Below, in pieces: positions 3,786 through 64,000 of a stretch of 64,000 bases of DNA. Every line of letters begins with the position of its first letter. Position 1 is the stretch's first letter. The notes below the pieces were generated by a model. It saw only the letters and a list, made by a program, of their open reading frames with translations, ran no database searches and had not been told where the DNA came from. The translations under genes were made by a program, and so were the position numbers. The DNA is from Reclinomonas americana ATCC 50394 (taxonomy: Eukaryota), in NCBI GenBank assembly GCA_048213135.1, contig PS015088.1:64180-128179 (forward strand), given 5' to 3'.

Positions 3786-4018
3786 GTCGTCGTCTCGTCG
3801 TCGTACGTACGTACGTACGTACGTCGTACGTCGTACGTACGTACGACGGTACGACGGTACGTAACGGTANNNNNNNNNNNNNNNNNNNNNNNNNNNNNTC
3901 GTTCGTCGTCGCGCGCTCTCCTCCTCTCCTTTCCTTTCCTTCCTTACCTCTACTCTACTTTTCTTTTCCCTTCCTCTAACTACGCGCCTCTCCTCCTCTC
4001 TCTCTCCTCCCTCCCTCC

Positions 4019-4055
<37 letters not shown>

Positions 4056-7000
4056 GTTCCCCTCGTTTCTGGTAAGGTCTACCAGCGCAGCACTCCCTTT
4101 CTGCCGCCGTAGTAATCCTCTTCCCTCCGTATCCAAAATACCATCCCTTCATCGTCTTTCCCACCCTCCCTTCCTTTCCTCCCTTCCCTCTTTCCCCCTC
4201 TTCCCACCTTTCCCAAACAAAATCACACGCCTCTCCCTTTTTCTTTGAACCTTCCCTCTCTCCCTTCCCTCCCTTCCCCTCCCCTCTCTCCCTTTCCTCC
4301 CTTTCCCTTTCCTTTCCCCCCTCACTCACCGCCTGAATATCCGAGTCATTCGCCTCAAAGAACTTGATCATCACATTCTTCAGATACTCCATGTCCACAA
4401 TGTCGCGGTTGATCATCTTCTCCAGCTTGCGAATCTCTGTCTTCAAGAACTTCTCCTGCTCCATGCGCAGCTGATGCATGTGCTCGCTGTCCAGCAGCGC
4501 CCTCCGCAGAATTCTGCAGACACATGGAAGTGAGATGCACGCGCAACAAGCTAGTGATCGTTTTGGCGAGTACGCAACTCGGCCTCCTCCAACGCCTGGC
4601 GCAGCGACTCGTCGCGCTGCGATTGCAGCTGCGCAAAGTACTCCACCTGTTGATCGATGTTACCGTCACCCGCTGCATCGTTGGAACACGGTGAGTGACA
4701 CAAAACAACCACGTGATGGACCAGGCAAAAACGAAACCTGGAGGCGGTCGCGTTCTCGTCGGCGTCGACAACTCGTGCATCCGGCTGACATAGCTCCGAT
4801 CGTGTCCATCAAGCAGACCGCCATCTATTGTCTGTACACCAATGTGCTTGACCTCCACAGTCGGACGCGAGGCACCAGGAGAGCCAAGCGCGGCGGCAGT
4901 CGACAAGCGACGACCTGGAGAGCGGATGAGGGTGGAGGCAGAGAAAATGAAGCAAGATAATTCACACTCACCATCCTCGCTCACTCCACCAGCGCTGCTT
5001 CCTGTAGCCGCGCCACTCCTGCTCGCGCCCTGTTTTAAGTCGTGTGAGTCATGGAGTGCGATCAACTCCACACCTCTCCTCTTTCTCAGCTCACCGCTCG
5101 AGGTTTCTCTCCCTCGCCAGCCGTCGTGCGCGCAGGAATCACACCTGTGGCAATGGAATAAGGATTCTGATGGAGACAGACAAGTGTCTCCTTTGCCAGC
5201 GACTTACCCAATGTCAATCTCTGCATTTCCTCCTCCTCCGTCGGCTTGGCCGGCGGCTCCTCCTCTGGCGACTCCTCGTCGGAGATCACGCCGCCAAGTG
5301 CACGCAATCGCTCGCCATACTTTCGGCGAACACGCGCCACCTCGCGATCTTTGTCGGTCGACGACTTGCGATTGCGTTCGCGCAGCGTGCGAATCTCGGA
5401 GCGGAACTCTTCGCAGCGCAACGCTTGTTGCTGCTGCAGGTCAGTGACCTCTGCGCGAAAAAAAGGAGAAATGAGAAGAAAGCGGACACGTCGTATGAGA
5501 GAGATTTGGAGTGACGAACCCTTCAAATGCACGGCGTGCGCTTCAGTGGCGCGCGTCTCTGCCTCCTCCTTCTGCGCCGCCATGGCACGATCCATGTCGC
5601 GCATTTGTGCTTCCAACTTCTCAGCCTGTCGAAAGATTGATGAGGTTCGACAAGGAATGGGGAAAAGCGATGTGTTCACGACGCACCCGAATGTTCGCCA
5701 GGTCGCGCTCCTGCTCCAACTGACGCTGCTTGGAGAAGTGATCCTCGGTGTGATGTTGCATCTCCTTGGTCAGTGCCTCGTAGTCGTTCAACTGTGCAGA
5801 GGTGAGTGAGACGAGAGATCGCCTACAAAGGGAGGCAACCATTACGTGGCTGCACAAACCGATGCATTGAGCTTGAAGATCTTCTCCTGCGCCAACTGCT
5901 CGGCACGTGTGGCATCATCCAGCTGCTTGGCCAGCGCCGCACAGTCTTCGGTCTTCTGCTTGAGAGCTGCCACTGCGCGGGTCTTGTACCGCTGTCCCTC
6001 CTCGGCAACTTGCGCCGCTCGCGCCTCGGCCTCGTCGATGCGTTTGCGCTGCGAGCGAGAGAGAGAGAAACGAATGAGTGTCCCGCAGGCGCAAGTACGA
6101 GTCCCGTTTCACAACTCAGCTCTCAACCACTCCTCTCTCTCTCTTCTCGCTCACTCTCTCATTTCTCTTATACTCTTTCTCTGTCCAGCACACACACGTT
6201 GCGTTCTCTCTTTTCAATCGGTATCATCCAACTCTTTCTGCCTGCATTCTGCGAAATCTCTCTTTTGCAGAACAAGTATTACGAGAACGGGATCAAGCGC
6301 TCGCTACAAAGATCAATGAGATCATACAGAAGATGGATAGTGAGTACGAGTGGGTCACACTAATAGAGAACAACAGGGAGAGTGCGCACGAGCGAACAAG
6401 AGCAAGTGAGCGCAACAACGCGTATTGGTGCAAGAGCACGATCATGTGTTGCTCTGCCTCCATTTCTCTGTACATCACAGCTTCCTTCTTTCTCTCTCTC
6501 TCTCTCTCTCACTCACTGCCACAGTCCACCTTTCTACATCACAGCTTCCTTCTTATTCTCAGCCCATCCCTATCAGTCTCATTCTTACTTTGCATGAGTT
6601 TCCTCGCCCTCTCATTTCCTTCTCTCTCTCTTTCTCGCCAGAAATCTGTTAATCCTTCTCAGCCCCTTCCCTTCCTCCAACCCCATTCCCTTCTCCCATC
6701 CCCCCATCCCCCATCCCATTCCCCCTATCTCACCATGCGAGCCTCCATGATAATCATGTCCTGCTCGGAGCGCAGGCGCGACACGCCCTGCAGCAAGCTC
6801 TGCATCTGCGCAGGCGTATCCGCGACACCACGGTAATAGTCCTCCGCCAGCACCCAGGCCTCTGGCTGCTGTACTTCGGCGTCAGGCGTCACCAGAATCC
6901 ACGTGCGCTGCTTGAACTCGAAGCAATTCGTCACGTTCCAGCCAGCCTTGCGCGCACTCGGTCGCTCCAGCTGCGACAGGATGAACAAAAGGTAAGTGCG

Positions 7001-7739: not shown

Positions 7740-10700
7740 TCGTCTCTCTCTCCTCCTCTCTCTCTCTCTTCCAGTCCTCTATCCCTCTCCCTCTCTCCCC
7801 TTCACCCCCCTGCCTCCCTCTCCCTCTCACTTCCCCTTCCCCCCTTCCTACCCTTGGCCTCGTTCTCCGACTTTTCAACAACAAATGCCGCCTGCAGCTG
7901 ATCAAAGTTGGAGCGAATCGACTCCATTTCTGCGGAAGAGACAGGTCATTGGCGATTGAGACCACATCGAGCTCTACAACTGCATCACCTTGGTTCAGCG
8001 AAGCAATCATCGTATCCTTTTCTGAGCCAGCTGAAGCTGCAGCAGAGATATTTGTTCAGTCTCTAATCCCACCACGATGATATTTCAAACCCGACGGAGG
8101 TGTACCTGTCGCAGCGGTCGACTTGAGTGCCTCCACGCGCTGCTCGACAACTTGCACGCGAGCAGCGAGTGCACTCAATTCGGCAGCGGGTGCCTGCAGC
8201 GGTCCACTGACGCTGCCCTCATCTTCGGCAGAGATCACGACCAGTCGCTTGGCGCACTCGCGCACCGCCTTGCTGATCTGCTCCGTCTGCGCCGCCCACG
8301 CCTGAGCAGCAACATCTGCGGCCAACAGTAATGAGCATTCGTCACTCTCGACCACAGAGAGACACCCGTCACCCAACCTTTCTCGTGTGCAAGCGCCGCC
8401 AACTCAGCGTCCTTGTGATCAATCTCCTCACGCGCTCGCGCCTGCCACGACTTGGTCTTTGCACGCAGTGTCTCCAAGGCCTGTGCGGCATCGGCGGACT
8501 CCTTTTGTGCTGCCTCCAGCTGCTGAGACACCTGAAAATCGCAGGAAAGTCAGGAATGGACACGCTACGCTCATTGCAAAATAAAATGCAGTAAACCGCA
8601 CCTCGCTCACTTGCTGTCTGGCTTCGGTGAGCTCCTGTGAGAAGTAGCGGTGAGAATCAGCCACACAAAAGGGCGGTAAAAAATAAACACACCGCCTCGA
8701 GCACGGCCCTCTCCTCGCTCGACACACGGGCCTGCTCTTCGACTTCTGCAAGTCGCGACTTGGCTGCGGACGCCTCCTCGGTCGCACCTCGGACCTCCTC
8801 CTCCAATTGCGCAAGTCGCGCTGCACTGGCACCGCCAGCTTCAGTTGCCAACCGAGCTTGCTGCTCCATTTCCGCCAGTCGCGCCTTGGCCGCCTGCGCT
8901 TCCTCGGCGGCTGACCGAGCCTGTTCCTCCAACTGCGCCAGCCGTGCCGCACTGGCGCCACCAACCTCACTGGCCAGTCGAGCCTGCTCCTCCACCTCCA
9001 CCAACCGCGCCTTGGCAGCCTGCGTTTCCTCCGCAGACAACCGGGCCTGCTCCTCCATCTCCACCAACCGCGCCTTGGCCGCCTGTGCTTCCTCACTGGC
9101 CAGTCGAGCCTGCTCCTCCAAAGCCGCCAATCGTGCCTCACTGGCCCCACCGGCCTCGGTCGCCAGTCGAGCCTGCTCCTCCATCTCCACCAACCGCGCC
9201 TTGGCCACCTGCGCTTCCTCACTGGCCAGTCGAGCCTGCTCCTCCAAAGCCGCCAATCGTGCCTCACTGGCCCCACCGGCCTCTGTCGCCAGTCGAGCCT
9301 GCTGCTCCACCTCCGCGAGCCGCATCTTTGCAGCGCGTGCCTCCTCGCCTGCGGCGTGCACCTGCGCCTCCGCCTCCGCAAGCCGCGCTTCCACCTCCGC
9401 ACGTGCCTCCACCGCCACACGAGCGTGCTCCGCCACGGCGGCCAATTGCGCCTGCGCCGCCTGCTCCATCTCGGCGAGTCGCTCATGCGCTGCACTGGCA
9501 TTCTCCTCGGCCGCCAGCACCTCCTGCTCCAGCGCCGCCACGCGGGCTTGCGCGGCCGCCGTCTCATCGTGCGCGTGCTTCAAATCGCTGCGCAGCGCGT
9601 CGTGCCGGCCCGACATCTCCGACATTTGCTCATGCAACTTGGCCAGCGGCTCGGCGGCGACAACCTGCGCCGCCGCCTCGGCCAGCTGCTGTTCCACTGA
9701 GGCGGAGAGCGCCTGCGCCTCGGCGAGCTCATTCTCCGCCTGCAGTGCTCGCGCAGTGGCGTCCGCCAGCGCCGCATTCAGCTCGTCGACTTGCACCTCA
9801 GCGGCACTCTTGGCGGCCGTCACCTGCGCAATCAGCGCGGCCTGCTCGTGGAGGCGTGCATCCGCATTCTGTCGTGCCTCGATCAATTTCTGCTCCGTCT
9901 CGCGCGCCGCCTCCAACTCGGCCGTCAGGCGAGCCACCTGTTCGGCAGTATCGTGCGCCTCCTTTGCATGGCTCTCCAGTGTCGCGCGCAGCTCCTTGAC
10001 CTCCTTGTTGGCCGCCTTCAACACCTCCACTGCCGCGACGCGTGCGGCGGCGTGTTCCTCGGCCGACGCCAGTGCCGCATCCCGCTGCTGCACCAGCTCC
10101 TGCAGCTCCTCCTTGGCCTTGGCCACGGTGTTGCTGTGCTTGCTCTGCAGCGCCTCCACCTGCGCCGACAGCTCCACCACCTGCTGCTGTGCCTGTGCCA
10201 ACTGCGCCGCCTGCTCGGCCGAGCGTGCTTCGACCGCGGCTGCGCGCGCTGCCGCCTCCCCAGCCTCCGCCTCCTCCGAGTGCATGCGCGAGGCGTAGGA
10301 ATCGCGCTCCGCCACCACGCCGGCCAGTTGCACGTCGAGATCCTTGGTGCGCGTCGCCAGCGCATCGCGCTCCCCACTCAACGCCACCACCTGTGCATTC
10401 AACTGCGCCACCACCGCACTGAGGCGCTCCTGCTCCGCCGCCATCTCGCCCTTGGCGCTGGCCAGCGCATTCTCCAGCTGCGACACGGCCTGTCCGCCCT
10501 GTCGGAGCGTCGCTTGCAGCTGCTCAATGCGTGCGTCGCGCTCCGCCACGGCGGCGTCGCTGCTGGTGGTCAGCTGCGCAAAGTCGCCGCCCAGCACCTC
10601 CAGTCGCGACTGCAGCATGGTGCGCTCGGCGGCCAGCGTGTCCCGCTCGCGATTCGCCGCTTCCAGTTGCTCGCGCAACTCGCCGTGCGCCCCCAGCAGC

Positions 10701-11860
10701 TGGCGAATCTCCTCCTCGGCCGACGATTTTTCCTGCGCCGTCTGCTCCAGCTCCTCCTGCAGCGCCGCCAACTCAGACTTGTCGCCGGCCTGCTGCTGCT
10801 GCAGCAGACGTTGCAGCTCGGCTTGCAGATCGGCCAGTTGGCGGGCGTGCGCCTCGCGGGCGGCGTTGCCCTCGGCCACCAGGCGCTCCACTTCGGAGTC
10901 GCGGTCGGCGGTGACTTGCACGAGGCGTTCGAGGCGGGAGCGGAGTTTGATGTTGGCTTGGTCGAGTTCTTGGGATTTTTCGGTGGCCTGTGGGAGGGGA
11001 GGGAGGAAGGGGAAGGGTGGGTGGGGGAAGGGGGGAAGGGGGAAGGGGGAAGGGGGTAAGGGGGAAGGGGAAGGAGGAGTGAAGGAGGAAGGGAAATGGA
11101 GATGAAAGGGAAAGGGAGAGAAAGACGAAGGGAAACTACGGATGAGAGAAGCGGATGAAGAGAGGAAAGGCTGATAACAATAAGATCCAGAAGAGTGCGA
11201 AAGCATGCTGCCGAGTAACATGGCAACAATCATTAAACTGAGCAATGAGAGAGAGGAGGGAAGAATAAGAATGACAGCGAAAATATGCGACAGGAAGTGA
11301 GGAGCGTCAAAAGATAGCACGGAGAGATGAAGAGCGAGAAATAAGATTGTGATTGGAGAGGTAACACAACTCAAGTGGTGGCGAGTCAGTGGGGTGCCTG
11401 TGTGAGCAAGCAAGAAGGGAAAGATGAGGTGGAGAAAAGGACTGCATGTTAGTAAGTTTTGCAAGAGGAGTGGGAGAGAAAACAAGTACAGAGGAAGAGC
11501 ATGAGTGAGTAACAGTGTGGGACAGGTGATTACGGGTGAGACAGAGGCGGCAAGAATGAGAGTAAGAAAACAAGAGTGGAGAACAGCAGAGGTGAAAAAA
11601 GAGAGGGTACGGAAATAAGGAGAGGAGAGGGAAACTGACCGGACAGGACAGTGATGCAAGAGGAACACGACAAGGGGTGAGCAAGACAGAAAGACAGACA
11701 GACAGACAGAGAGACAGAGGGAGAGAAAGAGAGAGAGAGCAACAATGAAGAGTGGAAGAAGTCGGCTGGAGGGAAGAATTACCAACACGAGGGAAACCTC
11801 TGTAAATTCCAGAGAGATAGTTAAAATCGCAAGTGAAAGAGAGAGAGAGAGAGTGTGTGT

Positions 11861-11908
<48 letters not shown>

Positions 11909-14900
11909 AAGCGCAGCAGCAGAGGAATGCGGAACCAGATCACAACTCGAGAGTAGTATAATGCGAGTGGTCAGGGAGTGAGAGAAAGTGACGCAGAGTC
12001 GAACCTGTGGATAGCCGAAGCAAGCCCCTTGACCATGAAACAAGACCCTATCTTCCCTCCCTCCCTTCCCCATTTCTACGCACCACCTGCAACTCATCGC
12101 GCAGCGACCTCTCCGTCTGCTCACACAATTTCGACAACTCCTCCTGTGCCAGCGACGCACGTCGCGACGAGGCAGTCACCTCCTGCGCCAGTCGCTCAAC
12201 TTGCGACTGCAGCCGGTCGATACGCTCATGTGCCTCCCTCAACTCGGTCTGCGCCGCGTCACGCTCTGCCAGCGTGCGAGTGTGCTCGCGTTGCATGTCC
12301 TGCAGTGCGGCCTTGGTGCTCTCGTATTGTTGTGTCAGCGCCGCCAGCTCCTCTGCGACACACGTGAGCAATCAAGACAGAAGAGCGATCATTTTCCGCT
12401 CACAAACCGTGGGCGACTTGCACACTGGACGAAGACTTGGCGTTGGACTGCTCGAGCTCCGACAGTGCGCGACGGGATTCTTCGTGCGCCACCTCCAGTC
12501 GTGATTTGATCTCTGCATGACGCAGAGGGTGAGACGAAACACACTCAACCTTGTGAAAAACGCGAGAAGGCTTTCTCGCTAATCGGCTGCGCACTGTTCA
12601 ACTCATGCTCCTCTAACAAGGACACCACAGTCGCCGATGGCGGAGCACTCTCGAGCAGTGCCATGCGCTGATTGGCATCCTCCAGCTCTCTCACGCACGC
12701 CGCGTGGCGTCCTGGGGCGGTGGTAAGTTCGACCACCACGGCCACCAGTAGGGGGGAAGAGAGGGAAGAGAGGGAAGAGAGGGAAGAGAGGGAAGAGAGG
12801 NNNNNNNNNNNNNNNNNNNNNNNNNNNNNNNNNNNNNNNNNNNNNNNNNNNNNNNNNNNNNNNNNNNNNNNNNNNNNNNNNNNNNNNNNNNNNNNNNNNN
12901 NNNNNNNNNNNNNNNNNNNNNNNNNNNNNNNNNNNNNNNNNNNNNNNNNNNNNNNNNNNNNNNNNNNNNNNNNNNNNNNNNNNNNNNNNNNNNNNNNNNN
13001 NNNNNNNNNNNNNNNNNNNNNNNNNNNNNNNNNNNNNNNNNNNNNNNNNNNNNNNNNNNNNNNNNNNNNNNNNNNNNNNNNNNNNNNNNNNNNNNNNNNN
13101 NNNNNNNNNNNNNNNNNNNNNNNNNNNNNNNNNNNNNNNNNNNNNNNNNNNNNNNNNNNNNNNNNNNNNNNNNNNNNNNGAAGAGAGGGAAGAGAGGGAA
13201 GAGAGGGAAGAGAGGGAAGAGAGAGGGAAGAGAGGGAAGAGAGGGAAGAGGGGGAAGAGGGGGAAGAGGGGGAAGAGAAGGGAAGAGAGAGGGAAGAGAG
13301 AAAGAGGGAGTGAATGAGAGAGTGGGAGACAGAGGGAGGAACCAGCCCCTTTCTTGCTCTCTCTCTATCACTCATTCTTGCAAAGTGTATCACTGTGCGT
13401 ACGCGCCGCAAGCCTGCCTTCTTCTGTCACTCGTCGGAAGGAGGAGAGGAGTGTGGAAGTGCTCAGTTTCTCTCCCTTTCTTGATCTCTAATCACGTGGA
13501 TCTGCTGAGCTGCCTTTTCCCCTCTTTGAGAGAGACACACAAACCTCGCAGCTCTTCGAGTTCGGCGACCAGCGCTGTTGGGAGGGGAAGGGAGTCAGCG
13601 AGAGGGAAAGACAAGAAAGAGATCAGCGAGCGCTGCTCACCTTGCTTGGCCTCTGACGACTGCTGAGCATCCAAGCGCGCTCCACTCAATTCGTGTTGGA
13701 GGGTTGCTGTCATGCGCAGTGTCAGTGGTCGTTGACGATACGAGAAACGAGATGAATTGGACGCACCGATTTGCGCGCGCAGAGTGTCCTGCAGCGACGC
13801 GTCGGCCGACGCACCGCCGGCAGATGCAGACTATGGATAGATGTGAGTAACTCACAGTGCATTCGCTCAGGTGGGCAGCTCGCTCACCAATTGCGCCTCG
13901 AGTTCGGCGATGCGCTGACGATCGGCGTCGCTTGTTTGCTGCACGCGCTGTTTCCCTTCCGCGGCTTTGGATTTGAAGGATTCGAATTCGTCGCGGACGT
14001 TGGTGAGCTCTTGGAGTTGGGTGGCGCTGGCGGCCAGGCGCTGATGACATAGGGAAGGGGGTGAGAAGTAGGAAGAAAAGGGAGAGAAAGGGGAAGCGAA
14101 GGGGGGAAGCGAAGGGGGGAAGCGAAGGGGGGAAGCGATGGGGGGAAGCGATGGGGGGAAGCGAAGGGGGGGAAGCGATGGGGGGGAAGCGAAGGGGGAA
14201 GCGAAGGGGGNNNNNNNNNNNNNNNNNNNNNNNNNNNNNNNNNNNNNNNNNNNNNNNNNNNNNNNNNNNNNNNNNNNNNNNNNNNNNNNNNNNNNNNNNN
14301 NNNNNNNNNNNNNNNNNNNNNNNNNNNNNNNNNNNNNNNNNNNNNNNNNNNNNNNNNNNNNNNNNNNNNNNNNNNNNNNNNNNNNNNNNNNNNNNNNNNN
14401 NNNNGAAGCGAAGGGGGAAGCGAAGGGGGAAGCGAAGGAGGGAAGCGAAGGAGGGAAGCAAAGGGGGGAAGCGAAGGGGGAAGCGAAGGGGGAGGAGAAG
14501 GGGGAAGCGAAGGGGAAGCGAAGGGGGAAGCACGAGGGGAAAGCGAAGGGGGTGAGAAGTAGGAAGAAAAGGGAGAGAACGGGGAAGCGAAGGGGGAAGA
14601 CGAAGGGAAGACGGAAGGGGGAGACGAAGGGGGAGGAGAAGGGGGGAAGAGATGGGTGAAGCGAAGAAGGGGGAAGGAGAAGAAGGGGAAGGAGAAGGGG
14701 AAGAGAAGGGGAAGAGCAGGGGGTAGAGAAGGGGGAAGCAAAGTGAAGAGAAGGAACAGTAATTCTGGGAATGGAACGGCAAAGCGAGAAAGGAACTGGT
14801 TGGTCAAGCCAAACGGGCAGCACATCACCAGCAAATGCAAGAAGAGAGAGGACAAATAGACACGTGAAAGCACTGGCAAGAAAGTTGAACGAATTTGAGG

Positions 14901-52546: not shown

Positions 52547-53508
52547 AGCGCGCGAACTGTTTTGAATGGCGAGAGGCCGGCGCCGGCATTGATTTTTCTG
52601 CCACAACGGCCGACTTTTTCCCTGCAACCACCAGTGACCGGTTGTCGACACACTTCCCCAAAGCGCTATGAACGCATGGGCGCCAGCGCATTTGAAGGGA
52701 AAGGCGCGCGCCAATCATCATCAATACACATGCATGCGCAAATTCGAACACGGAAGGACTCTGTCGATGCCTTGCGCGGCCACACGTGCAAGTCGACACG
52801 CTCGCACTGCAAACGGCAGCGTGTGGGATACACAAGAGAAGAAGAAGACTTTCTGTATTCCCAGCGCGGCTTTTGGACATTCCAATTGTCGGCGGAGTCA
52901 CACATTGTCGTTGTGCGCACGAGAGAAAGACGAAACACAAACACCACACTCACACTCACACTGTTGTCATTTTCTCTGTTTGCGCAAGTGAGTGAGCGTG
53001 AGCGTGCGAGTGAGTGAACACAAGAAAGAGAGCGACGTCATCGCACAAGTGTGTGTGCGCGCGAGAGTGGGAAAATGTCCGCGGCCATGTCCACAGGGTG
53101 AGCTAAACACACCGCTCTCTCTCTCTCTCTCTCTTTCTTCCTCCCTCTGTCACACACACGCACATGCACCACACCACATCCTCTCTGCTCTCCCACAGCG
53201 AGAGCAACACATTCCTTTCGCACCCTCAGGCATATTCGCCACTGTGTGATGGCGATGGATATTCTGCTCAGCCCAAATGAGACATTCTCTCCTCTCAAAA
53301 ATCGTTTGTACACGCTCTCTTTCCCTCACACACTTGTCTCTGCGCACATGCGCCTGTGAGCGCGCGCACGAGAGAGACAATGAGTCGCGCGTGTGCGTGA
53401 GTGGGGGCACAGACCGTGTGAGACCATATTTGAGTGTTAGACACGCCCACTCGCTTTTCACTCCGTATGTGTTCTCTGGCACACTCACTCGCTTTGCCTC
53501 AAATACAG

Positions 53509-56500
53509 AACTGAGGTCGATGCCGCACCTCCACCTCCACCACCAGCAGCAGCAGTGGAGAAAGTCGCCACTGACTCCTCCTCATCATCGACGTCATCAT
53601 CAGTTGGTGTGGTGCGCATCTCGCCCTCCACACTCGTGCTCCCGCAGCATTACTCGTCCGAGGAGGCGGCCGCCCTCAGCGTGGCCATTGCCAAGGGCGA
53701 CATTGAAGAGGCGCGACTCATCCTCTACCGCAACCGCGCGCTCTTCAAAGCCGACTTACCCGACGCCGCCATGTCGAGTGAGGTGCGCCAGTTGGCCTCG
53801 CAGCGACGCCTGCTCAAGGCCATGATGCTGCGCGCGAATGGAGTCCCGGTCGAGTCGCTGCTGGCCTACCTCCACCAGGACGAGAAACAAGCGGACGGCG
53901 ACGCTGCTGTGCCTGTGCCGCCGCACGTTGCCGGGACGACGCCGTTGCATTTGGCGGCGCAGCTCGACGAGACCGACATGATACGGTACACACAAAGAAA
54001 AAGAGCGTTTCCTTGTGTAAGTCGCCGCCGTTTTCTGACTTAGATGATGATGGCAGGTGGCTGGTGAATGAGCAACCGTGGTTGTTGGTGGTGCGAGACG
54101 CGCACGAGCGAACGCCGGCGGATGTGGCGCGCGCCATGGGAAATCGAATGGCGGGCGAGGTGTTGCAGCAGTTGCTGATGGAGCACTTGTCTGCTGGTCA
54201 GTCTTCTTCTTCGTCGTCTGCAGAAGATCATCAAAAACACGGTGGTTTGTTGTTTGGTTTTGGGCGGCGGGCGTCGTGAGTGGTTGCGGTGGTGGTGGGC
54301 GGGTTGATGTCGTCCTCCTGCTTCTCCTACTCCCACGTCACGTACGCACACACACGCGCGCGCTCGTGCCTGCCACTTGCCACCTTGTTGTGCCTGTTTC
54401 TCCACACTGCAGAGCACATTCTCCTCTTTTCCTCTTTCGAATATACCCTCATTCGTTTCCCCTCTTCTCTCTCTCATTCCCTTCTTTTGCCTCTCTCTCT
54501 CTCTCCCTCTCTGTGTGTGCGTGCATGGCATTCTCCTTTTTCTTTCTTTTTGTCGTCAGGCTCAATGGGGATGGTGCATCACTCCGCTGCCGCCGGTCGC
54601 AAAACTCCCTCTTTCCCCTTTGCTCATTTCCTCCCGTTACTCTTTTTTTTCCCTTCTGTTGCGCGTTCATGCACACCTCCCACCTTCACTTTATTCTCTT
54701 CTCTACTGATGCTGCCACCCGCCCTGCTATCACCGCCTTTCTCCGATACCATTGGCGACCACTATTCCTCTTTATTCGAACACTCCTATTCTGGTCGCAT
54801 ATGATTCACGTGTTCCCATCTCCTATCCTCCCGTCTCCTCCCTATCTTTTCCCCTCTCCCAGTACTCTCATTCACCTCGTTTCTCATTCTAATCGATGTT
54901 ATTCACCCTCACCCCATTAAGATTCTTCGTGTTCGAATGTCCAACAATTTGTGCGCCACACAGGCTCGCAAGATGTCGTTCAATTGCAACGTGCATTGCA
55001 AGAACACGAGACGGCGCTCATCCAGGCGCGCATGATCCTGGAGAGCTCCGATGCCGCCGCACGCGCTGCTCGCGAGGAGCTGCAAGCGAATTTCATTCAG
55101 ATACTGACCACGGAACGGGAGGCGCATGAGCGCAATGAGCTCGTGCATCGCCAGCGCGAGGAGCAGCTGCGGTCGCGACAGCAGGAGTTGGAGAAGCGGA
55201 ACAGTGAGTCACGGAAGATGGCCGACGAGGCGCGCGCGGAGTTGCGGAGAGAGCGGGATGCGCGGTTGCGAGCCGAGGCCGAGCTGGCGCAATTACGGCA
55301 GCGCTACGATCCGTTGTCGGGCGGTTCCGGCAGTTGCGTTCTGTCGCCAAGAAAAGGGGATAGTATTATTATTGTGGTGGCCTGACACACTGCTCATTAG
55401 GCGACTCGTCGTCGGGGAATGGGGATCGCGAGTCGAGTCCACCGCAGGGCAGCTCCAGTGCCGACGCCCAGAGCAGCCCGATTGCGGAGATGCACCGCAA
55501 GGTGGTGGAAATGCGGCGGCAGCTGCATTCGTTGTGCATTCCGTCGGTGTTGCGGGCTGTCAGTGTGGTCACGGAGGTGCGTTGTGGGAGCACAGGGAGG
55601 AAGAGAGGGAAAGAGGGACAGAGAGGATGAGGAGGGGGGCACTGTCAGTGTAGTCACGGAGGATTGTCGTGGGAGCACAGGGAGGAAGAGAGGATTCTCG
55701 TCGCTTCTTGCTACCTTTTCTTCTTTACTCCCCCTTCCTTANNNNNNNNNNNNNNNNNNNNTTCCTCATCCTTCCCTTTCCCCTTCTCCCCCTCACCTTC
55801 CCCCCCCTCCACCGACAGGCCCGCGAGGTCCAACGAAGTGCCAAATTCGCCGAGCAATTCACCACCAGCTCAGCGTACCGCGCCGCCGCCGGCTGCCGAC
55901 AGCTGGTGGACACGGCGAGCGGATCGTTGAGTCGATTCACTCTTCCTCCCGCCCTCTCTCCCCTCTCCAGTCCCTCACCAGCACACAGATGGAATGACAC
56001 GCTGGAGAGGGCCACCAACGACCGCCTCATGCGTACCGAACTGGCGGTGCGCACTCTGCGCTCCATCATTGAGAAAACNNNNNNNNNNNNNNNNNNNNNN
56101 NNNNNNNNNNNNNNNNNNNNNNNNNNNNNNNNNNNNNNNNNNNNNNNNNNNNNNNNNNNNNNNNNNNNNNNNNNNNNNNNNNNNNNNNNNNNNNNNNNNN
56201 NNNNNNNNNNNNNNNNNNNNNNNNNNNNNNNNNNNNNNNNNNNNNNNNNNNNNNNNNNNNNNNNACAGGCGCTGCTGTCGGAACACGAGTCGCTGGCCGG
56301 CTCTCTGCAGGCACAAGCCAGCACTCCCACCATCAATGGCTCCTCGTCGCCGGACTCGGTCGACGACGAGTCGAGCAACTCGAATTCATCGAGCGGTGCG
56401 TTTTCCCTCCTATCCTCCCAGTCTCCCATCAATCTGCCCTCACACACATTCTCCCCTCTCTGCAGACTTGTCGTCCAACGCCGTCGAAGTCGTCAGCCCG

Positions 56501-59500
56501 GCGTTGATTGCTCAGTTGCACCGATGGATGGAGACTCACTGGGCGCGCATCGAAGCCGCCGTGCTGGCCACGGACGGTAGCGTCGTGTCACACGGACTCA
56601 ATGGCAACATTCACCACGAGGCCGACGCACTGTCGCAGGCCCTCGATGCTGTGCCGGTCACCGCCGAACACGTCGGCCTCATTCGCTCCATTCTGGTGCG
56701 TGCGTGGGTGGAGAAAGGGGGCGAAGGGACTGTCATATTAAGAGTCTCACACGCGCGTGTGCAGGGCAAGAGCGCGCGTTCGTGCAGCTCCGTCCTGGCC
56801 CTGCTCGTCACCGAGTGCAATCGCCTCTCGCGTGGCCTGGACGTGCAACGGCGCTCCATCCACGTGTGCGACGAGGTCACCGAGGCCTCGCACGAGGCGC
56901 GTGTGGCCGACCGCGCACTGCGACGAGCACTGGTGCGGGGAAGGAGATCTTTTTTTCTTCTTGCGCATATCGGCTCACCACCACATGCAGGTCGACTTGG
57001 AGGAGCAGCAAGACGACGGCGCCAGCCAACCGGTGCTTGCCATGCTGGCCACCACTGTGGAGGAACGCCGCGAGGCACTCGGCAAGGCGCAGGAGAGATT
57101 AGCCCTGTGCAGTCACGCCCTGACGCTGCTGGAGAACGAGGAGTGGGTGCCGGAGCTCACGCTGCGGTCTCAGCGTGCTGTCGAGGCACTTGGTCAGCAG
57201 GTTTGTGAAAGGAAGGGAGAGGGGAAGGGAGGGAGAGAGAGAGAGAGAGAGGAGGAAGGGGGAACGATAGAGGTTGGTGGTGATCTTAACAAAAGGATCT
57301 GGAGGAGAATTTGGAAAAGGGGGAAACAGAGAACAGGATGAGGAAGAGAAGAGGCAGAGAGTATGAGTGTGCATTGCGCAGAAGTAGCCACGAGGCCGCG
57401 AGCAGGTCATGACTTCGGCCCTGCTTTTATGTACTTCTCTCCCATTCAATACTCGCCCCTCCGTTTTCTGTATATCGCCCTCCACTCCTGTCTCCCGTTT
57501 CTGTCTTCTTCCATCTCCCTTCTCTTCTTTCTGTCTCCATTTTCTACCGTTTCACCTTACTTCTCCCACCCACTCGTCTCCATTCGCGCTTCTCCCAAGT
57601 CGCACTTTTCATTCCCTTACCCACCCTTGACGCCCTTCACGTCCTTCCTTTTCGCACTCTTCCTCTCCATGCTTCTCGCTCTCCGCCCTCCCTCCTTCCC
57701 AATCCTTCCCCCTTGATTACTTCCCCCTTCATCTTCTCCCTTTTTTTCCCCTTTCCCCCTCTGCCCCTTCCGTCTTCCCCCTTCGTCTTCCCCCCTTCGG
57801 TCTTTCCCCTTCACCTTCCCCCTTCACCTTCCCCCTTCACCTTCCCCCTTCACCTTCCCCCTTCACCTTCCCCCTTCACCTTCCCCCTTCACCGTCCCCC
57901 TTCACCTTCCTCTTCCACCTTTCCCCTTCCCCCTTCCCCCCCTTTTCCTCACCCGCGCTCTTGTCCACCACCGCAGCACGTCATCCCCACCGTCCTACTG
58001 CGAAGCCCCTTCCTGATGCCGACGGTACGCGAGGACGCATTTGTCGACGTGGAGGAGGTGGCGGGTCGGAGAAACGTGTATCGCGCAAGGTGCGTCACCT
58101 CACTCGTCTCTTTTCTTGCTTCGCAGCGCTAACTCCTGTCATGCAGGTTGCGAGAGGACGGCAGCCGGTGGATTCTCAAGCGATACACGCTCGGCGATGA
58201 GCAGGCACGCCACCGCTTCCTTCGCGAAGTCAGCATTCTTCGACAGGTTTGTTTCATTGTTTCTTTTTGTCTGTCTCTTCTCTCCCTCTCACTCTCTCTT
58301 GCAGGTACAACACCCGAACGTGGTCCGCCTGCGCGGTTACTTTTTGGGCGACAAGAGCGCCGAGGATGTGATTGCCGTGTTCTCCTACCCGGGACTGCGC
58401 TCGTTGACAACATGGTGCCGCGAAAAACAGCGATCGGAGAGCGAGATCCGTGAGGTGTTCTTTGGATTGTTGCAGGTGCGGTTGTTCTTTCACATCGTTG
58501 CCTGTTGTGTGAGAGACCACAACTGAACACACATCGGGGGACTTCGATGCAGGGATTGGTGGCTCTCCATCAGCACGACGTGGTGCATTGCGACTTGAAC
58601 TTTGAGAATGTGATTATCAGTGCCGACGGGCAGCCGCGCATCGTCGACTATGACATTGCCGATGGTCCTCGGCCGCTGACGCGTCGCTTGGCAGTGGCAG
58701 GTGTGTTCTGCTACGCACGCTGCTTCCCCACTATTTGCACTCACCTTTCCCTTCATCCGCACAGCCGAGGGCTCCGACGGCTTCCTCGCACCCGAGGTGA
58801 TCGAGTGCATGGCCCGCCAGCGAAACGGCCTGCTGGCCTCCACGGAGCCGTCCCGTGACCTGTTTGCTCTGGGTGTTATGCTTTTCCAGGCGATGGTCGG
58901 CATGGATCGAGCAGTGTCGGTGGTGCCCGCGGGTGCCAGCGGCGGCTGGGAGGTCCATCTGGATCAGGCCGCCATCACCTCGCCCACGCTTCTGTCACTT
59001 GTTCTGGCACTGGTCAGTGATATGCGCACATGTGTGCGTGTGTTTGTCGTGCGTTGTCTCACTGCCGTGGCACACAGGTTGAACCCGATCCAAAGAAACG
59101 CATTTCGGCGCTCGACGCACTGGCACACCCATTCTTCCGACTCCACTCATTACCGGCGTATGCCGTCGACGCGGCCACTTCACTGGCCGAGCAGCGCGTA
59201 CAGTCGATTCGTGAGCAACTCGCACGCATGAGGACACACGCCGGACCGTACATTATGCCAGTTGCGGGCATGCAGAGATTTTTCTTTGTCGAAGAGGCTG
59301 AGTGACTCAACTGTGGGTGCGCGCACAGATTCAAGTTTCGCGCGAATCACTGGTCACCGACGGCGCCTCGTTCTTCCTGTCCATGGAGCCGTCGAACTGG
59401 ATTGTGCCACTGCGTGTCTCGTTTTTGGGCGAGGAAGGAGTGGATGCGGGCGGCCTCACTGCGGAGTTTTTCGCTCAGGTTTGTGAACACACTGTTCTTC

Positions 59501-61356
59501 TCATCGCCTGTTGATCCTCTTTGTCATCCCAACACGCGATGCTTTCCTCGCATCTCCTTTCTCGTTACCCTTCTCGCTCCTTTCCAACTGTTGCTTTTCT
59601 TGATCCTCTCTGTCATCCCAACACGCGATGCATTCCCCGCATCCCCTTCCCGTTACCCTTCTCACCCCTCTCCAACTCTTGCTATCCTTTTGCCGTCCCA
59701 ACACGCGATCCTTTCCTCACATCTCCTCTCTCGTTACCCTTCTCGCTCCTTTCCAACTGTTGCTTTTCTTGATCCTCTCTGTCGTCCGACTCTTTCCTCC
59801 CATCTCCTTCCCGTTACCCTTCTCGCTCTTCCCCAGCTCTTGCCTTTCTTGATCCTTTTTGTCGTCCCAACACGCAGTTCATTCGTCGCATCTCTTTCCC
59901 TTGTTGCTTTCTTGATCCTCTCCGTCGTCCCAACACACGATCCTTCCACATCCCCTTTGCCCTTCTCACTCTTCCCCAGCTCTTCCCTTTCTTGATCCTT
60001 TTTGTCGTCCCAACACACGATCGTTTCCTCGCATCTCTTTCCCTTGTTGCTTTCTTGATCCTATCTGTCGCCCCAACACGCGATCCTTTCCTCACATCCC
60101 TTTCCCTTTACCCTTCTCGCTCCTCTTCGGCTGTTGCTTCTCGTGATCCTTTCCTCGCGTCTCTTTCCCTTCACCCTTCTCACCCCCTCCGCTCCTCTTG
60201 CAGTTCTTTGAGCAACTGTGCACCAAGTCGAACGCATTCGTGCGGGAGGACGAGCACGACGCGCAGTACTACCACGTGGCGCCGCTGCACGTCATGTCGC
60301 GCGAACACCGAGAGCAAGCGGAGCTGACGTTGCTGGCGTTTGGTCGCGCCCTGGCCAAGTGTCTGTCGGAGGCGCACGCGGCGCTGCCGGCTCCCCTGTA
60401 CTCGGACGTGATCCTGGAGCTGCTCGGCTCGACTCCACGCGCGCGCATGTTTTGCGATCCAAATGATGTGACGGCCGACGCTGCCGAGGCGCTGCTGCGC
60501 GCACTCGAAGTGATTGTGCCGTCGGTGGCCAGGAGCTTGCGCTTCACCCTGGTGCAGTTCGAGGCCTCCATGTTGTTCTTTGACGATGTTGTACCCGAGT
60601 TTTTGCCAAGCACTGTCAGTTGCGTGCGGATAGGGAGAATGGGATTGGCATGGCGAGTGGCTCACGAGATTGCTTTGCAACACAGATGCACGTGATGGCG
60701 TCACGGAGGAGAATCGCTTGTCGTACGTTTGTGCCCGCGCTCGCACGGTGTTGCTGGGTCAGGGCCGGTTGGACGCCATCTCAATAATTAAGCGCGGAGT
60801 CCGGGATTGTCTGGCACCCGCGTTGGGCGATCAGGTGTGTGTGCGCGCGCGTCATGGAATCGTTAGTCGTGGCACTCATTTCTTCTCGAATATGCTGCAG
60901 CTGCTCAACTCCATGGGTGCCTTTGAATGGCTGCGCGCACTGCCGGCAACGCAGGAGTCTGTCGGTGCGTCCTTCTCCTTCATCGTCTCCCCTGTCCCTC
61001 TCACCACCGCATCGCTCACCGCTCGCACAGATGCCGAGGCCCTCATCGACCTGCTGCGCTTTGAGCACTTCCCTGACGCAAGCGAGGCACCCCATGTGCT
61101 GGCCCAGGCGCTGCGCGAATTCACACAAGATGAGTTGCGCCAGTTCCTCAAGTTTGTCACCAATCTGCCGGGGCTGCCGTTCGGACATCCGCGACCGGTG
61201 TTGGTGGTGGCCTCGGCGGCTGGTGTCGAAGAGCTCCCGACGGCGCACACCTGTGTGCCGCAGTTGGATCTCAGCTGGCATCACTCGTCGGCCGAGGTGC
61301 TCGGTCGTGTGCTGCGGACGGCGATTGCGCAGTGTGTTGGCTTTGGATTCGCGTAG
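53509..61356 (+). CDS. Ankyrin repeats + coiled coil + protein kinase (non-RD, DYD) + HECT E3 ubiquitin ligase fusion
   Basis: ANK: GTTPLHLAAQLDETDMI|RWLV, ERTPADVA. Coiled coil ~54964-55310. Kinase 57977-59140: WILKRY, FLREVSILRQ|VQHPNVVRL, VVHCDLNFENV, IVDYDIA, GFLAPE, DLFALGVML, DPKKRISALDALAHPFF. HECT 59329-61356: LRVSFLGEEGVDAGGLTAEFF, VTEENRLSYV, RQFLKFVT, LPTAHTC (Cys codon 61252), GFGFA stop. The true start is not resolved, and the ANK-to-kinase link crosses N gaps. Confidence 0.8.
59510..60175. repeat. Intronic degenerate minisatellite in the HECT region
   Basis: ttcttgatcct...tgtc(a/g)tcccaacacgcgat and cgttacccttctcgctc each recur several times. Confidence 0.8.
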
Positions 61357-61407: not shown

Positions 61408-63614
61408 TCATCCGGGACACCGACTGCGATACTCTTCCACCAGCTCGGCGTTGAGCGAGGGTGTGACCTTTCGCCGTGCGCTGTCAAAGTCCGCCGTGCA
61501 CTGCGCGTTGTCAACAGTGAGCATGAGTTGGAAGGGAGGTCATGGGCATTGTGTCGCACCACCACTGCCGAATTCATATCTCTCCGGAGCGCAGACATGG
61601 CCGCCTCTGTGCACAGCGCTTTGAGCTCGGCTCCCGTCATGAATTCCGTCTGCACACAACATGTCTCAGTGCACCGAGGAGAGTGATGGCGAAAAAAACG
61701 AGCGTCACACCTGCTCGGCGATCCTGGTGAGGTTCAGCCTGTCGTCGAGCGGCATGCCACGCGTGTGCACTCTCAAGATGGCGACACGAGCCTCCAGATC
61801 GGGTGGTGGCACAAACAGCAGGCGATCGAAGCGCCCGGGGCGCAACAGTGCGGCGTCCACCATCTCGGGTCGATTGGTCGCCGCCATCACCAGCACATCT
61901 CGCCGCAGCGCACCGACGCCGTCCATTTCGTTCAACAGCGCCGTGAGAATGCGGTCTCGTACGGCATCTGAGCCCCCACTTTCACCACCATCTCCACGCT
62001 TGCCGACCAGTGCATCGATTTCGTCGAGGAAAATGACGGACGGTGCGGCCAGGGCGGCCTTCTTGAACAGCTCGCGAATGTACCGCTCGGCGTCGCCGAC
62101 ATATGGCGAGTACACGGTGGCACCACTGGTGTGGAGAAAGGTGAGCGACGCAGAGGCCGCGACAGCCCGCGCCAAACTGGTCTTTGCGCAACCCGGCGGT
62201 CCGTGCAGGAGAATGCCGCGCGGTGGCGACAGACCCATGCGCTCAAACGTGTGCCGGTACCGCAGCGGCCACTGGATCGCCTGCGCCAGTGCCAGTTTCA
62301 CGTCCTCCAGGCCACCAATGTCGTCAAACGACGCCACCGGTGCCGACACGCCGACTTCGGCGGCCTCTCGATGCAGCGATGGACGCACCACCGACCGTGC
62401 ATGCTCAAAGTGCGACCGCCCGACGCGCACATTGGCGGCGGCGGCAGCGACAGCCTCTGCGTCGGCGGCCAGAAACGCGACGCGACACAACTCGGCCAGA
62501 TCCGCCCCCACGAATCCAGCGCACGACTCGGCAATCGTCACTGAAGGAAAACAATAGTGAGAGGAGACAAGGACGATGATGGAAAAGCAAGCAATCCATG
62601 CAAACCAAGATCAACATCGTCTGCCAGTCGCATGCGGGAGGTGCGCGCACGCAGGATGGCCACCTTGCCGTCGAGTGACGGTGGCGGTATCTCGATCTCG
62701 CGATCAAAACGACCGGGCCTGCGCAGAGCGGGATCCAACCGTGATGCGGCATTGGTGGCCGCCAGCACCACTACTCCCGATGATTGTTCGCCGGGCGCGT
62801 GATCGAGGTCGTCCATCAGCGTCTGCAATTGCGCGACGATGCGTGCGCCGTAATGACTGCCGACAGAGTCGCGCCGCTGACACAACGCGTCGATCTCATC
62901 CATGAAAATCACCACGGGCCGATTGCGCGATGCTATTTCGCGTGCTTCTGCAAACGCCTCACGCAACCGGCGCTCCGTCTCACCCATGGTGTCGTCGGTG
63001 ACCGACGCACAGTCGATGCACACCACATGCGCGCCGCACTCGCGCGCCACAGCACGCGCAGCACTGGTCTTGCCGACGCCTGGAGGCCCCGTGAGCAGAG
63101 CACCACGCGGTGGACGCACACCCAGTCGAGTGAACACTTCGGGGACGCGGTGCGGCAGCACCACCAGTTCGCGCAGGGAGCGGAGGACGGAGTCGAGCCC
63201 TCCAAGCAACTCTCCCTCCTCTTCCTCCTCCTCCTCTTCGTCCTTGTCATCCTCCGACAGAGGGGAAGGAGACCTCCCTGGTGACGACTGCTGCTGTAAC
63301 CGCAGCCGTGTGTTGGCGGTGACGAAAAAGAAGCGATCGGGCGGAGCACTGGCCTCGGCTGCCACCGCCGTCGAGAAGCGCACATTTGCCACATGCAGTG
63401 GAAGCACGTCGGTCGCTGCCTTATCGTCATCACCGACCGGCATCAACACTGTGACACCGACCTCCAACAGCGGAAAGCGACGCAGGAATGCTTGCACGCG
63501 GGCGGCGTCGACGGGTGATCGAGAAGAAGATGACGACGACGAAGGGCAGTGCACTGTGACGGAGCTGGCGCGGCGAGGGATGGGGCGGCCAGATGTGAGC
63601 ACGTCAATGGTGGC
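61408..63614 (-). CDS. SPATA5L1: Two-domain AAA+ ATPase, SPATA5L1/AFG2B-like (5' end outside the window)
   Basis: D1: PRGALLTGPPGVGKT, IFMDEID, LDPALRRPGRFDRE. D2: PRGILLHGPPGCAKT, YSPYVGDAE, IFLDEID, VDAALLRPGRFDR. Last exon ...KVTPSLNAELVEEYRSRCPG, stop 61408. The GVGKT/GCAKT pair fits AFG2B better than AFG2A or Cdc48 (recalled sequences). Confidence 0.8.
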
Positions 63615-63942
63615 CTGCGAGAGAGGGATGAGAGAAGGGGAAAGGGAGAGGGGAAGGGAGGAAGGGGAAGGGAAAGGGAAGGACAGAGGAGGAGGAGGAG
63701 GAGGAGGAGGAGGAGGAGGAGGAGGAGGAGGAGGAGGAGGAAGAGGAAGAGGAAGAGGAAGACGAAGAGGAAGAAGAAGAAGAAGAAGAAGATGATGAAG
63801 GTGGAAGGGACGTGGAGAAGAAGAAGAGAAGAAGATGATGATGAAGAAGAAGGAAAAGGAGAAGGAGAAGAAGAAGGAGAAGAAGAAGAAGAAGAAGAAG
63901 AAGAACAACAACAACAACAACAAGCAGAACAACACCAAATCC

Positions 63943-64000
<58 letters not shown>

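Follow-up and report, generated by a model that had tools for sequence, protein, structure and literature searches.

A putative kinase-HECT ubiquitin ligase gene of Reclinomonas americana, a very divergent member of a known protist family

The subject of this report is a predicted multi-exon gene on the plus strand of a 64,000 nucleotide (nt) stretch of DNA from Reclinomonas americana ATCC 50394 (GenBank assembly GCA_048213135.1, contig PS015088.1, positions 64,180 to 128,179), which as a whole is called the window; all coordinates below are those of the window. The model predicted for 57977-61356 is a kinase-HECT module whose 688 codons are spread over 11 exons and are not interrupted by a stop. 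The kinase-like domain comes first, the HECT domain is C-terminal. With a probability of roughly 0.8 we consider the region to be the 3' two-thirds of one gene. At the end of its product an atypical eukaryotic protein kinase (ePK) domain would be connected by about 41 linker residues to the complete HECT domain of a catalytic E3 ubiquitin ligase, and the protein would belong to a protist family with consecutive Pkinase and HECT domains which includes HECT12/TKUL from Leishmania. That both domains reside on a single polypeptide is probable.

The HECT domain, the kinase-like domain and their relatives

The HECT part is composed of five exons, 59329-59478, 60204-60618, 60686-60834, 60901-60964 and 61031-61356, which were delineated with Pfam HECT and a family profile and are separated by introns of 725, 67, 66 and 66 nt. 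The last open reading frame (ORF) alone is recognized by Pfam HECT (PF00632) with an expectation value (E) of 8e-19. Compared with the family HECT profile, the spliced model attains 205.6 bits, and the match extends over positions 40-377 of the 378 in the profile. The family profiles of both domains were built without the window. The motifs which an earlier, sequence-only reading of this DNA had cited were all located on the plus strand: DPKKRISALDALAHPFF of kinase subdomain XI at 59087-59137, IQVSRESLV at 59329-59355 and GEEGVDAGG at 59428-59454 in the first HECT exon, PTAHTC at 61237-61254 with the catalytic Cys codon at 61252-61254, and the terminal GFGFA at 61339-61353 followed by the stop codon at 61354-61356. 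The catalytic motifs of the ligase are intact. The nearest solved structures are the C-lobes of E6AP/UBE3A, AREL1, HUWE1 and HECTD3, the best match in the PDB being E6AP (E 7.6e-07). In common with the window product they possess a C-lobe in which the catalytic Cys and Phe -4 are present; unlike the window they have no kinase domain. A chain which combines kinase and HECT was not among the 25 PDB matches of this sequence search.

The kinase-like domain and the linker are encoded by six exons, 57977-58089, 58147-58246, 58305-58475, 58553-58700, 58765-59012 and 59078-59260, which were assigned by a family kinase profile and by alignment. The single-exon ORF 58454-58858 matches Pfam Pkinase with E 3.2e-07 and 30.4 bits, just below the gathering score of 31.7, because one exon spans only positions 107-146 of the profile. 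A second kinase exon gives E 0.036. When spliced, the domain scores 171 bits against the profile from 21 family proteins, compared to at most 3.8 bits for 200 shuffled sequences.

The ten introns predicted in the module are all of the GT-AG type; nine are 57-77 nt long and one has 725 nt. Taking the candidate upstream exons into account, intron sizes in the gene fall into two classes, 57-77 nt (n = 11) and 725-776 nt (n = 3; 54197-54963, 57201-57976 and 59479-60203). The three long introns are pyrimidine-rich on the coding strand, with a C+T content of 0.68-0.78 compared to 0.41-0.54 in exons. The one inside the HECT domain (59479-60203) contains tandem repeats of about 80, 143 and 169 nt, and that at 57201-57976 carries about 16.6 copies of the 13-nt repeat CTTCCCCCTTCAC at 57.7-57.9 kilobases (kb).

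Relatives were collected by phmmer with the C-terminal HECT exon as a query against a library of 1.84 billion protein representatives. At E ≤ 0.001 there were 129 matches, only one of which attained E ≤ 1e-10, and the best identity was 44%, to a fragment of 168 amino acids (aa). Thus, the source lineage has no close relative in this library. A word-prefiltered homology search with the HECT exon against longer proteins gave no match at E ≤ 0.001, the prefilter being too insensitive for this protein. The Pfam scan was limited to the 47 phmmer matches of at least 400 aa and excluded the 82 shorter ones. HECT was present in 47 of 47, and in 21 of these, including 10 of the 11 top-ranked, a Pkinase domain is located just upstream of HECT. 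The N-termini of these 21 kinase-HECT proteins vary: TPR repeats in six (P0002, P0009, P0033, P0034, P0035 and P0108), Kelch in two, RCC1 in one and nothing recognizable in 12. When ten family proteins were compared with the window by tblastn, all ten matched kinase and then HECT collinearly on the plus strand. The kinase part was matched at E ≤ 0.001 by six of them, and there was one stray match elsewhere with E 0.48.

Among the members of the kinase-HECT clusters are Phytomonas sp. Hart1, Papus ankaliazontas, Salpingoeca macrocollata, Naegleria lovaniensis, Willaertia magna, Dictyostelium discoideum and Tieghemostelium lacteum. The cluster represented by P0108 contains Leishmania major XP_003722795.1 (LmjF.35.4000) and a protein of L. 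donovani annotated as 'HECT12', as well as entries from L. infantum and L. mexicana. A tree was computed from 48 HECT domains by an IQ-TREE quick search. A split with a value of 96 in the Shimodaira-Hasegawa-like approximate likelihood ratio test (SH-aLRT) places the HECT domain of the window together with all 21 kinase-HECT proteins and six HECT-only rows, opposite 20 HECT-only proteins. At least three of these six (P0008, P0029 and P0081) come from contigs of less than 2 kb and probably are truncated.

The architecture as such is known. In LmjF35.4000, Parsons et al. (2005; PMC1266030) saw a unique ePK which is accompanied by HECT and three TPR motifs, and Grau-Bové et al. (2013; PMC3673628) reported unusual kinase domains on 'GL-Bikonta' HECTs from Naegleria and Ectocarpus. 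Given these reports from 2005 and 2013, the novelty implied by the sequence-only reading has to be given up. Its statement that HECT families carry no kinase applies to the human and yeast families which it named, but not to the protists covered by the two publications. A hect12 null mutant of L. mexicana suffers a loss of fitness (Burge et al., 2020; PMC7647121). A 2026 preprint (10.64898/2026.05.08.723729) names the Leishmania protein TKUL/HECT12 and states that both activities matter in amastigotes and that ligase activity requires autophosphorylation. In summary, the fusion is not new; the window contains a very divergent new copy, possibly with a different head, and with an altered catalytic loop.

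The proteins from Leishmania (LmjF.35.4000, LmxM.34.4000) resemble the window product in an ePK domain which lacks a Gly-rich loop, in a linker of about 40-45 aa and in a C-terminal catalytic HECT. Their representative P0108 is found by phmmer with an E of only 5.5e-4; it lies on the window's side of the SH-aLRT split. The Leishmania proteins have N-terminal TPR repeats, whereas in the window none were found and ANK-like and coiled-coil candidate exons take this position. Their motifs HGDLKPSN and DFG correspond to HCDLNFEN and DYD in the window. As a rule, trypanosomatid genes are essentially devoid of introns. Thus, the Leishmania fusion would be a single ORF, and we take the HECT12/TKUL gene to be intronless, in contrast to the module in the window with its ten introns.

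The domain order of the window is further found in N. lovaniensis XP_044545551.1, W. magna KAL9654662.1, T. lacteum KYQ89671.1 and D. discoideum KAM9966213.1, with about 25-40% identity to the window in local matches. These heterolobosean and dictyostelid proteins resemble the window in having HCD or HRD combined with DFD or DFE; unlike the window they have retained the catalytic-loop Lys. The N-terminal regions of the Naegleria and Willaertia proteins and related members are without a Pfam domain, and Tieghemostelium has RCC1 repeats. Their counterparts in PMC3673628 would probably be the 'GL-Bikonta' HECTs for which kinase domains were reported there.

Kinase or pseudokinase

In the alignment with the 21 relatives the window kinase has kept the β3 Lys (WILKRY), the αC Glu (FLREV), the Asp of the HxD motif and the Mg-binding Asn. 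The catalytic loop reads HCDLNFEN (58586-58609). The position of DFG is occupied by DYD within VDYDIA (58643-58660), i.e., the first Asp is kept, and APE is present as LAPEV. Two features weigh against a conventional kinase and, to this extent, against our reading of the module. First, the Lys of the catalytic loop is replaced by Asn (HRDLKxxN to HCDLNFEN). In Ser/Thr kinases this Lys contacts the γ-phosphate. Because of this replacement the activity of the window kinase may be weak or altered, and its catalysis is doubtful. Second, the Gly-rich loop GxGxxG is replaced by VAGRRNVYRA.

These substitutions, together with the change from DFG to DYD, form the basis of the most serious alternative, i.e., that the gene encodes a fusion with a pseudokinase. 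Phosphotransfer would have been lost, and the domain would serve as a scaffold, as a substrate-binding module or as a nucleotide-dependent regulator of the HECT domain. The family itself lends some credit to this idea. Four of the 21 members (P0006, P0009, P0050 and P0120) have lost the HxD/DFG catalytic motifs and are clearly degenerate, one of them from the choanoflagellate Salpingoeca macrocollata. Catalytic loss therefore recurs in the kinase-HECT family, which suggests a repeated drift toward pseudokinase-HECT forms. The catalytic-loop Lys is missing exclusively in the window, in the four degenerate members and in P0105 (HRDINWNN), which is the only other motif-intact protein with a change from Lys to Asn.

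On the other side, the retained residues listed above, from the β3 Lys through the Mg-binding Asn to the first Asp of DYD and APE, speak against a pseudokinase. HCD combined with DFD or DFE is the usual form in the subgroup of Naegleria, Willaertia and related members, and DFD is the usual one for Naegleria, Dictyostelium and their relatives. The Gly-rich loop is absent from every aligned family member, the Leishmania protein included, and the latter is called an active kinase (preprint 10.64898/2026.05.08.723729). On balance, a pseudokinase appears somewhat unlikely, and an atypical kinase-like domain with most of its catalytic residues in place is the preferred description.

How might such a protein operate? 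A variable protein-binding module at the N-terminus, for which TPR, Kelch or RCC1 repeats are used elsewhere in the family and here probably a coiled coil and perhaps ANK-like repeats, would recruit and choose substrates. By analogy with TKUL, the kinase-like domain would license HECT in cis. The simplest route would be autophosphorylation, which the preprint claims for TKUL; another conceivable cis route would be a nucleotide-dependent conformational control of HECT. Subsequently, the HECT Cys would form the thioester with ubiquitin. The word 'sensor', which the sequence-only reading attached to the protein, has no evidence behind it.

The junction between kinase and HECT

The kinase frame runs into a TGA at 59303-59305, and the HECT domain is read in another frame. 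All GT/GC...AG pairs which restore the frame without a stop were listed, and six were scored against a junction profile of 121 positions which covers the end of the kinase, the linker and the start of HECT; it was derived from the 21 relatives with the window excluded. The best of the six is a GT-AG intron of 68 nt at 59261-59328 (CCA|GTTGCG ... GCACAG|ATT) that contains the TGA. It gives 78.8 bits in one domain of 121 aa. Introns of 41 nt (72.6 bits) and of 32 nt with GC-AG borders (69.6 bits) also yield one domain, whereas those of 131 nt (donor 59198; 65.9 bits), 164 nt (64.7 bits) and 125 nt (donor 59211; 62.8 bits) break the match into two. The donors 59198 and 59211 look good by a GTRAGT-type consensus; nevertheless, they were rejected because of the lower scores, the two-domain matches and the fact that the modelled donors of this gene are not GTRAGT-like. 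In the best model 41 residues separate HPFF from IQVSRES. This is close to the 'about 45 aa and one short intron' of the sequence-only reading. The length of the junction intron is that of the other short introns of the module (57-77 nt). Its donor, GTTGCG, is identical to the donors at 60619, within the HECT domain, and at 55333.

The hexamer GTTGCG, preceded by CA, is unusual as a donor. It is used at three modelled introns (55333, 59261 and 60619) and occurs once more at about 55545. A fit to GTRAGT is not encountered among the modelled donors.

Two adjacent genes, the first (kinase) terminating at TGA 59303 and the second (HECT) beginning just downstream, would explain the stop and the change of frame without recourse to an intron with a weak donor and without a CTNAY motif. 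Yet, from the stop to the first codon of the HECT domain there are no more than 23 nt. The ORF in the HECT frame opens at 59302, it has no Met upstream of the domain, and the first Met is situated 18 residues inside the domain. Therefore, a stand-alone HECT gene is unlikely whatever the exact donor. The joined model exceeds with its 78.8 bits the sum of its parts, 26.2 bits for the end of the kinase alone and 45.8 bits for HECT exon 1 alone. Furthermore, kinase and HECT are fused in this order in the nearest relatives. Two genes thus are quite improbable. The proposal of the sequence-only reading that a kinase is fused to a catalytic HECT in one chain is most likely correct, in view of the in-frame GT-AG intron, the lack of a Met in HECT exon 1 and the relatives with the order Pkinase, linker, HECT. 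If the intron 59261-59328 were retained, the TGA at 59303-59305 would terminate a kinase-only product.

A decaying pseudogene or a chimeric scaffold of unrelated pieces is very improbable, for although this eukaryotic DNA with its spliced genes comes from a draft assembly with 13 runs of N in the window, identity to the library does not exceed 44% and the HECT domain forms a long branch, the 688 codons of the 11-exon model are read through without a stop, every intron has GT-AG borders, the catalytic motifs are intact and no N gap occurs from 56265 to 61356.

A fused kinase-HECT gene is the reading which we prefer, and in addition to the two kinase features mentioned above several points have to be charged against it. 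The exon structure, the splice at the junction included, is a model derived from sequence and family profiles. Of 11 short introns, nine have a branch-like CTNAY motif in the tail, which the junction intron does not; with 45% pyrimidines, the 3' tail of the latter is not pyrimidine-rich. At E ≤ 10 the window was not retrieved by a 41-position profile restricted to the family linker, and a 32-position profile of the family pre-kinase motif likewise missed it. Hence, the homology of the linker depends on the flanking anchors plus about 7-8 extra bits, and the linker by itself was dropped as a proof of homology. The family alignment was built with the window row, which was taken out before hmmbuild, and this leaves a mild bias. 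In the tree the window HECT is a long branch (1.59), and its sister pairing with P0105 stands under a long-branch warning. Finally, the mechanistic claim for TKUL amounts to one sentence in one preprint which in turn cites another source.

Upstream exons, neighboring genes and implications

The gene very likely extends upstream to at least 56.5-57.2 kb. A pre-kinase exon at 56991-57200 ends with the phase-0 donor CAG|GTTTGT at 57201 and has a weak homology to P0007. It resembles residues 520-580 of this protein, just upstream of the P0007 kinase (tblastn E 0.004; blastp E 3e-4 in a database of 21 proteins). The candidate intron, 57201-57976, is 776 nt long and pyrimidine-rich, and has a phase-0 acceptor in frame with the kinase exon. 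Ahead of its first Met (58016) the kinase exon has an open frame back to the AG at 57975-57976. It is the agreement in phase of this acceptor with the donor at 57201, together with the resemblance to P0007, that argues for the extension.

Further upstream the picture becomes less distinct. A candidate ANK-like exon occupies 53510-53985. According to the splice model it has an AG acceptor at 53507-53508, and there is no Met before about 53770. Pfam recognizes one Ank repeat with E 0.0025 and 18.5 bits, below the cut-off of 21.1. As to the ankyrin repeats which the sequence-only reading had placed ahead of the kinase, a repeat is visible, but it is sub-threshold and weaker than the kinase and HECT parts. 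A language-model look-alike search (Atlas) pointed to Ank clusters with a score of 0.96 and 125 shared features, which serves as a lead only. A second candidate ANK-like exon, 54057-54196, with the donor CTG|GTCAGT at 54197 upstream of the stop at 54279, has no Pfam match at E 0.1. The two would be joined by an in-frame candidate intron of 71 nt (53986-54056). A candidate intron of 767 nt (54197-54963; C+T 0.70; in frame) would lead on to a coiled-coil-like exon at 54964-55332 with weak Pfam matches to coiled-coil families and the donor GCA|GTTGCG at 55333. A candidate intron of 68 nt, from this donor up to the resumption of coding at 55401, bypasses the stop at 55386. In this way the in-frame candidate splices of the upstream chain remove the stops at 54279 and 55386. 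The following coding-like ORF stretch, 55401-56465, is broken by N gaps at 55742-55761 and 56079-56264. Because of these two gaps a continuous exon model could not be built across it, which weakens the upstream link. About 100 nt are directly duplicated at 55560-55700 (GTCAGTGT.GTCACGGAGG...GGGAGCACAGGGAGGAAGAG), a short distance ahead of the gap of 20 N that starts at 55742, possibly a sign of incorrect assembly in this central part of the gene.

When all plus-strand ORFs from 53-58 kb were compared by blastp with the 21 family proteins, P0007 was the only match (57000-57179), and none was obtained for the ANK or coiled-coil exons. ANK repeats ahead of a kinase were not observed in the homologues scanned, which weakens the ANK link. 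Pfam scans of 12 plus-strand ORFs (53441-61356) gave no TPR match at E 0.1 and no match to C2 plus WW or RCC1-like domains as in NEDD4 or HERC, the stretch 55401-56465 with its N gaps being only partly scanned. Whether the ANK-like exons are joined to the kinase-HECT gene is, in our judgment, evenly balanced.

From these pieces a more far-reaching scheme can be drawn. In an intron-rich, poorly sampled eukaryote the kinase-HECT family would have gained a head of ANK-like repeats and a long coiled coil and would have lost the catalytic-loop Lys. Control over HECT would then lie with a pseudokinase or a module that senses ATP instead of with autophosphorylation, and by retention or removal of the 68-nt intron with TGA 59303 the gene could switch from a product with the kinase only to the full ligase and back. 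We regard this combination as improbable.

Other genes in the window were noted in passing. On the minus strand, 61705-63998, there is a gene with two AAA ATPase domains of the CDC48/NVL type (Pfam AAA E about 2e-38 for each of two ORFs), with a best named identity of 59% to a jakobid CDC48 entry. This gene and the kinase-HECT gene are convergent, and about 350 nt lie between the end of its last coding ORF and the HECT stop. The end of the window (63658-64000) is taken up by long microsatellites of GAA/GAGGAA and AAC. Also on the minus strand are an uninterrupted ORF of 1172 aa without Pfam match at E 1e-4 (8660-12175) and an ORF which matches the Golgi-targeting GRIP domain with E 2.4e-05 and 24.5 bits at a cut-off of 24.4 (3979-4659).

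The locus does not reveal a new kind of system. Kinase-HECT proteins unite phosphorylation and ubiquitin transfer within one chain, and so far apparently only HECT12/TKUL from Leishmania has been studied. The gene reported here adds a very divergent member to this family, with a candidate N-terminal head which is different and with a natural exchange of Lys for Asn in the catalytic loop. Because of these two properties the Reclinomonas copy could help to sort out which features of the kinase the ligase needs.

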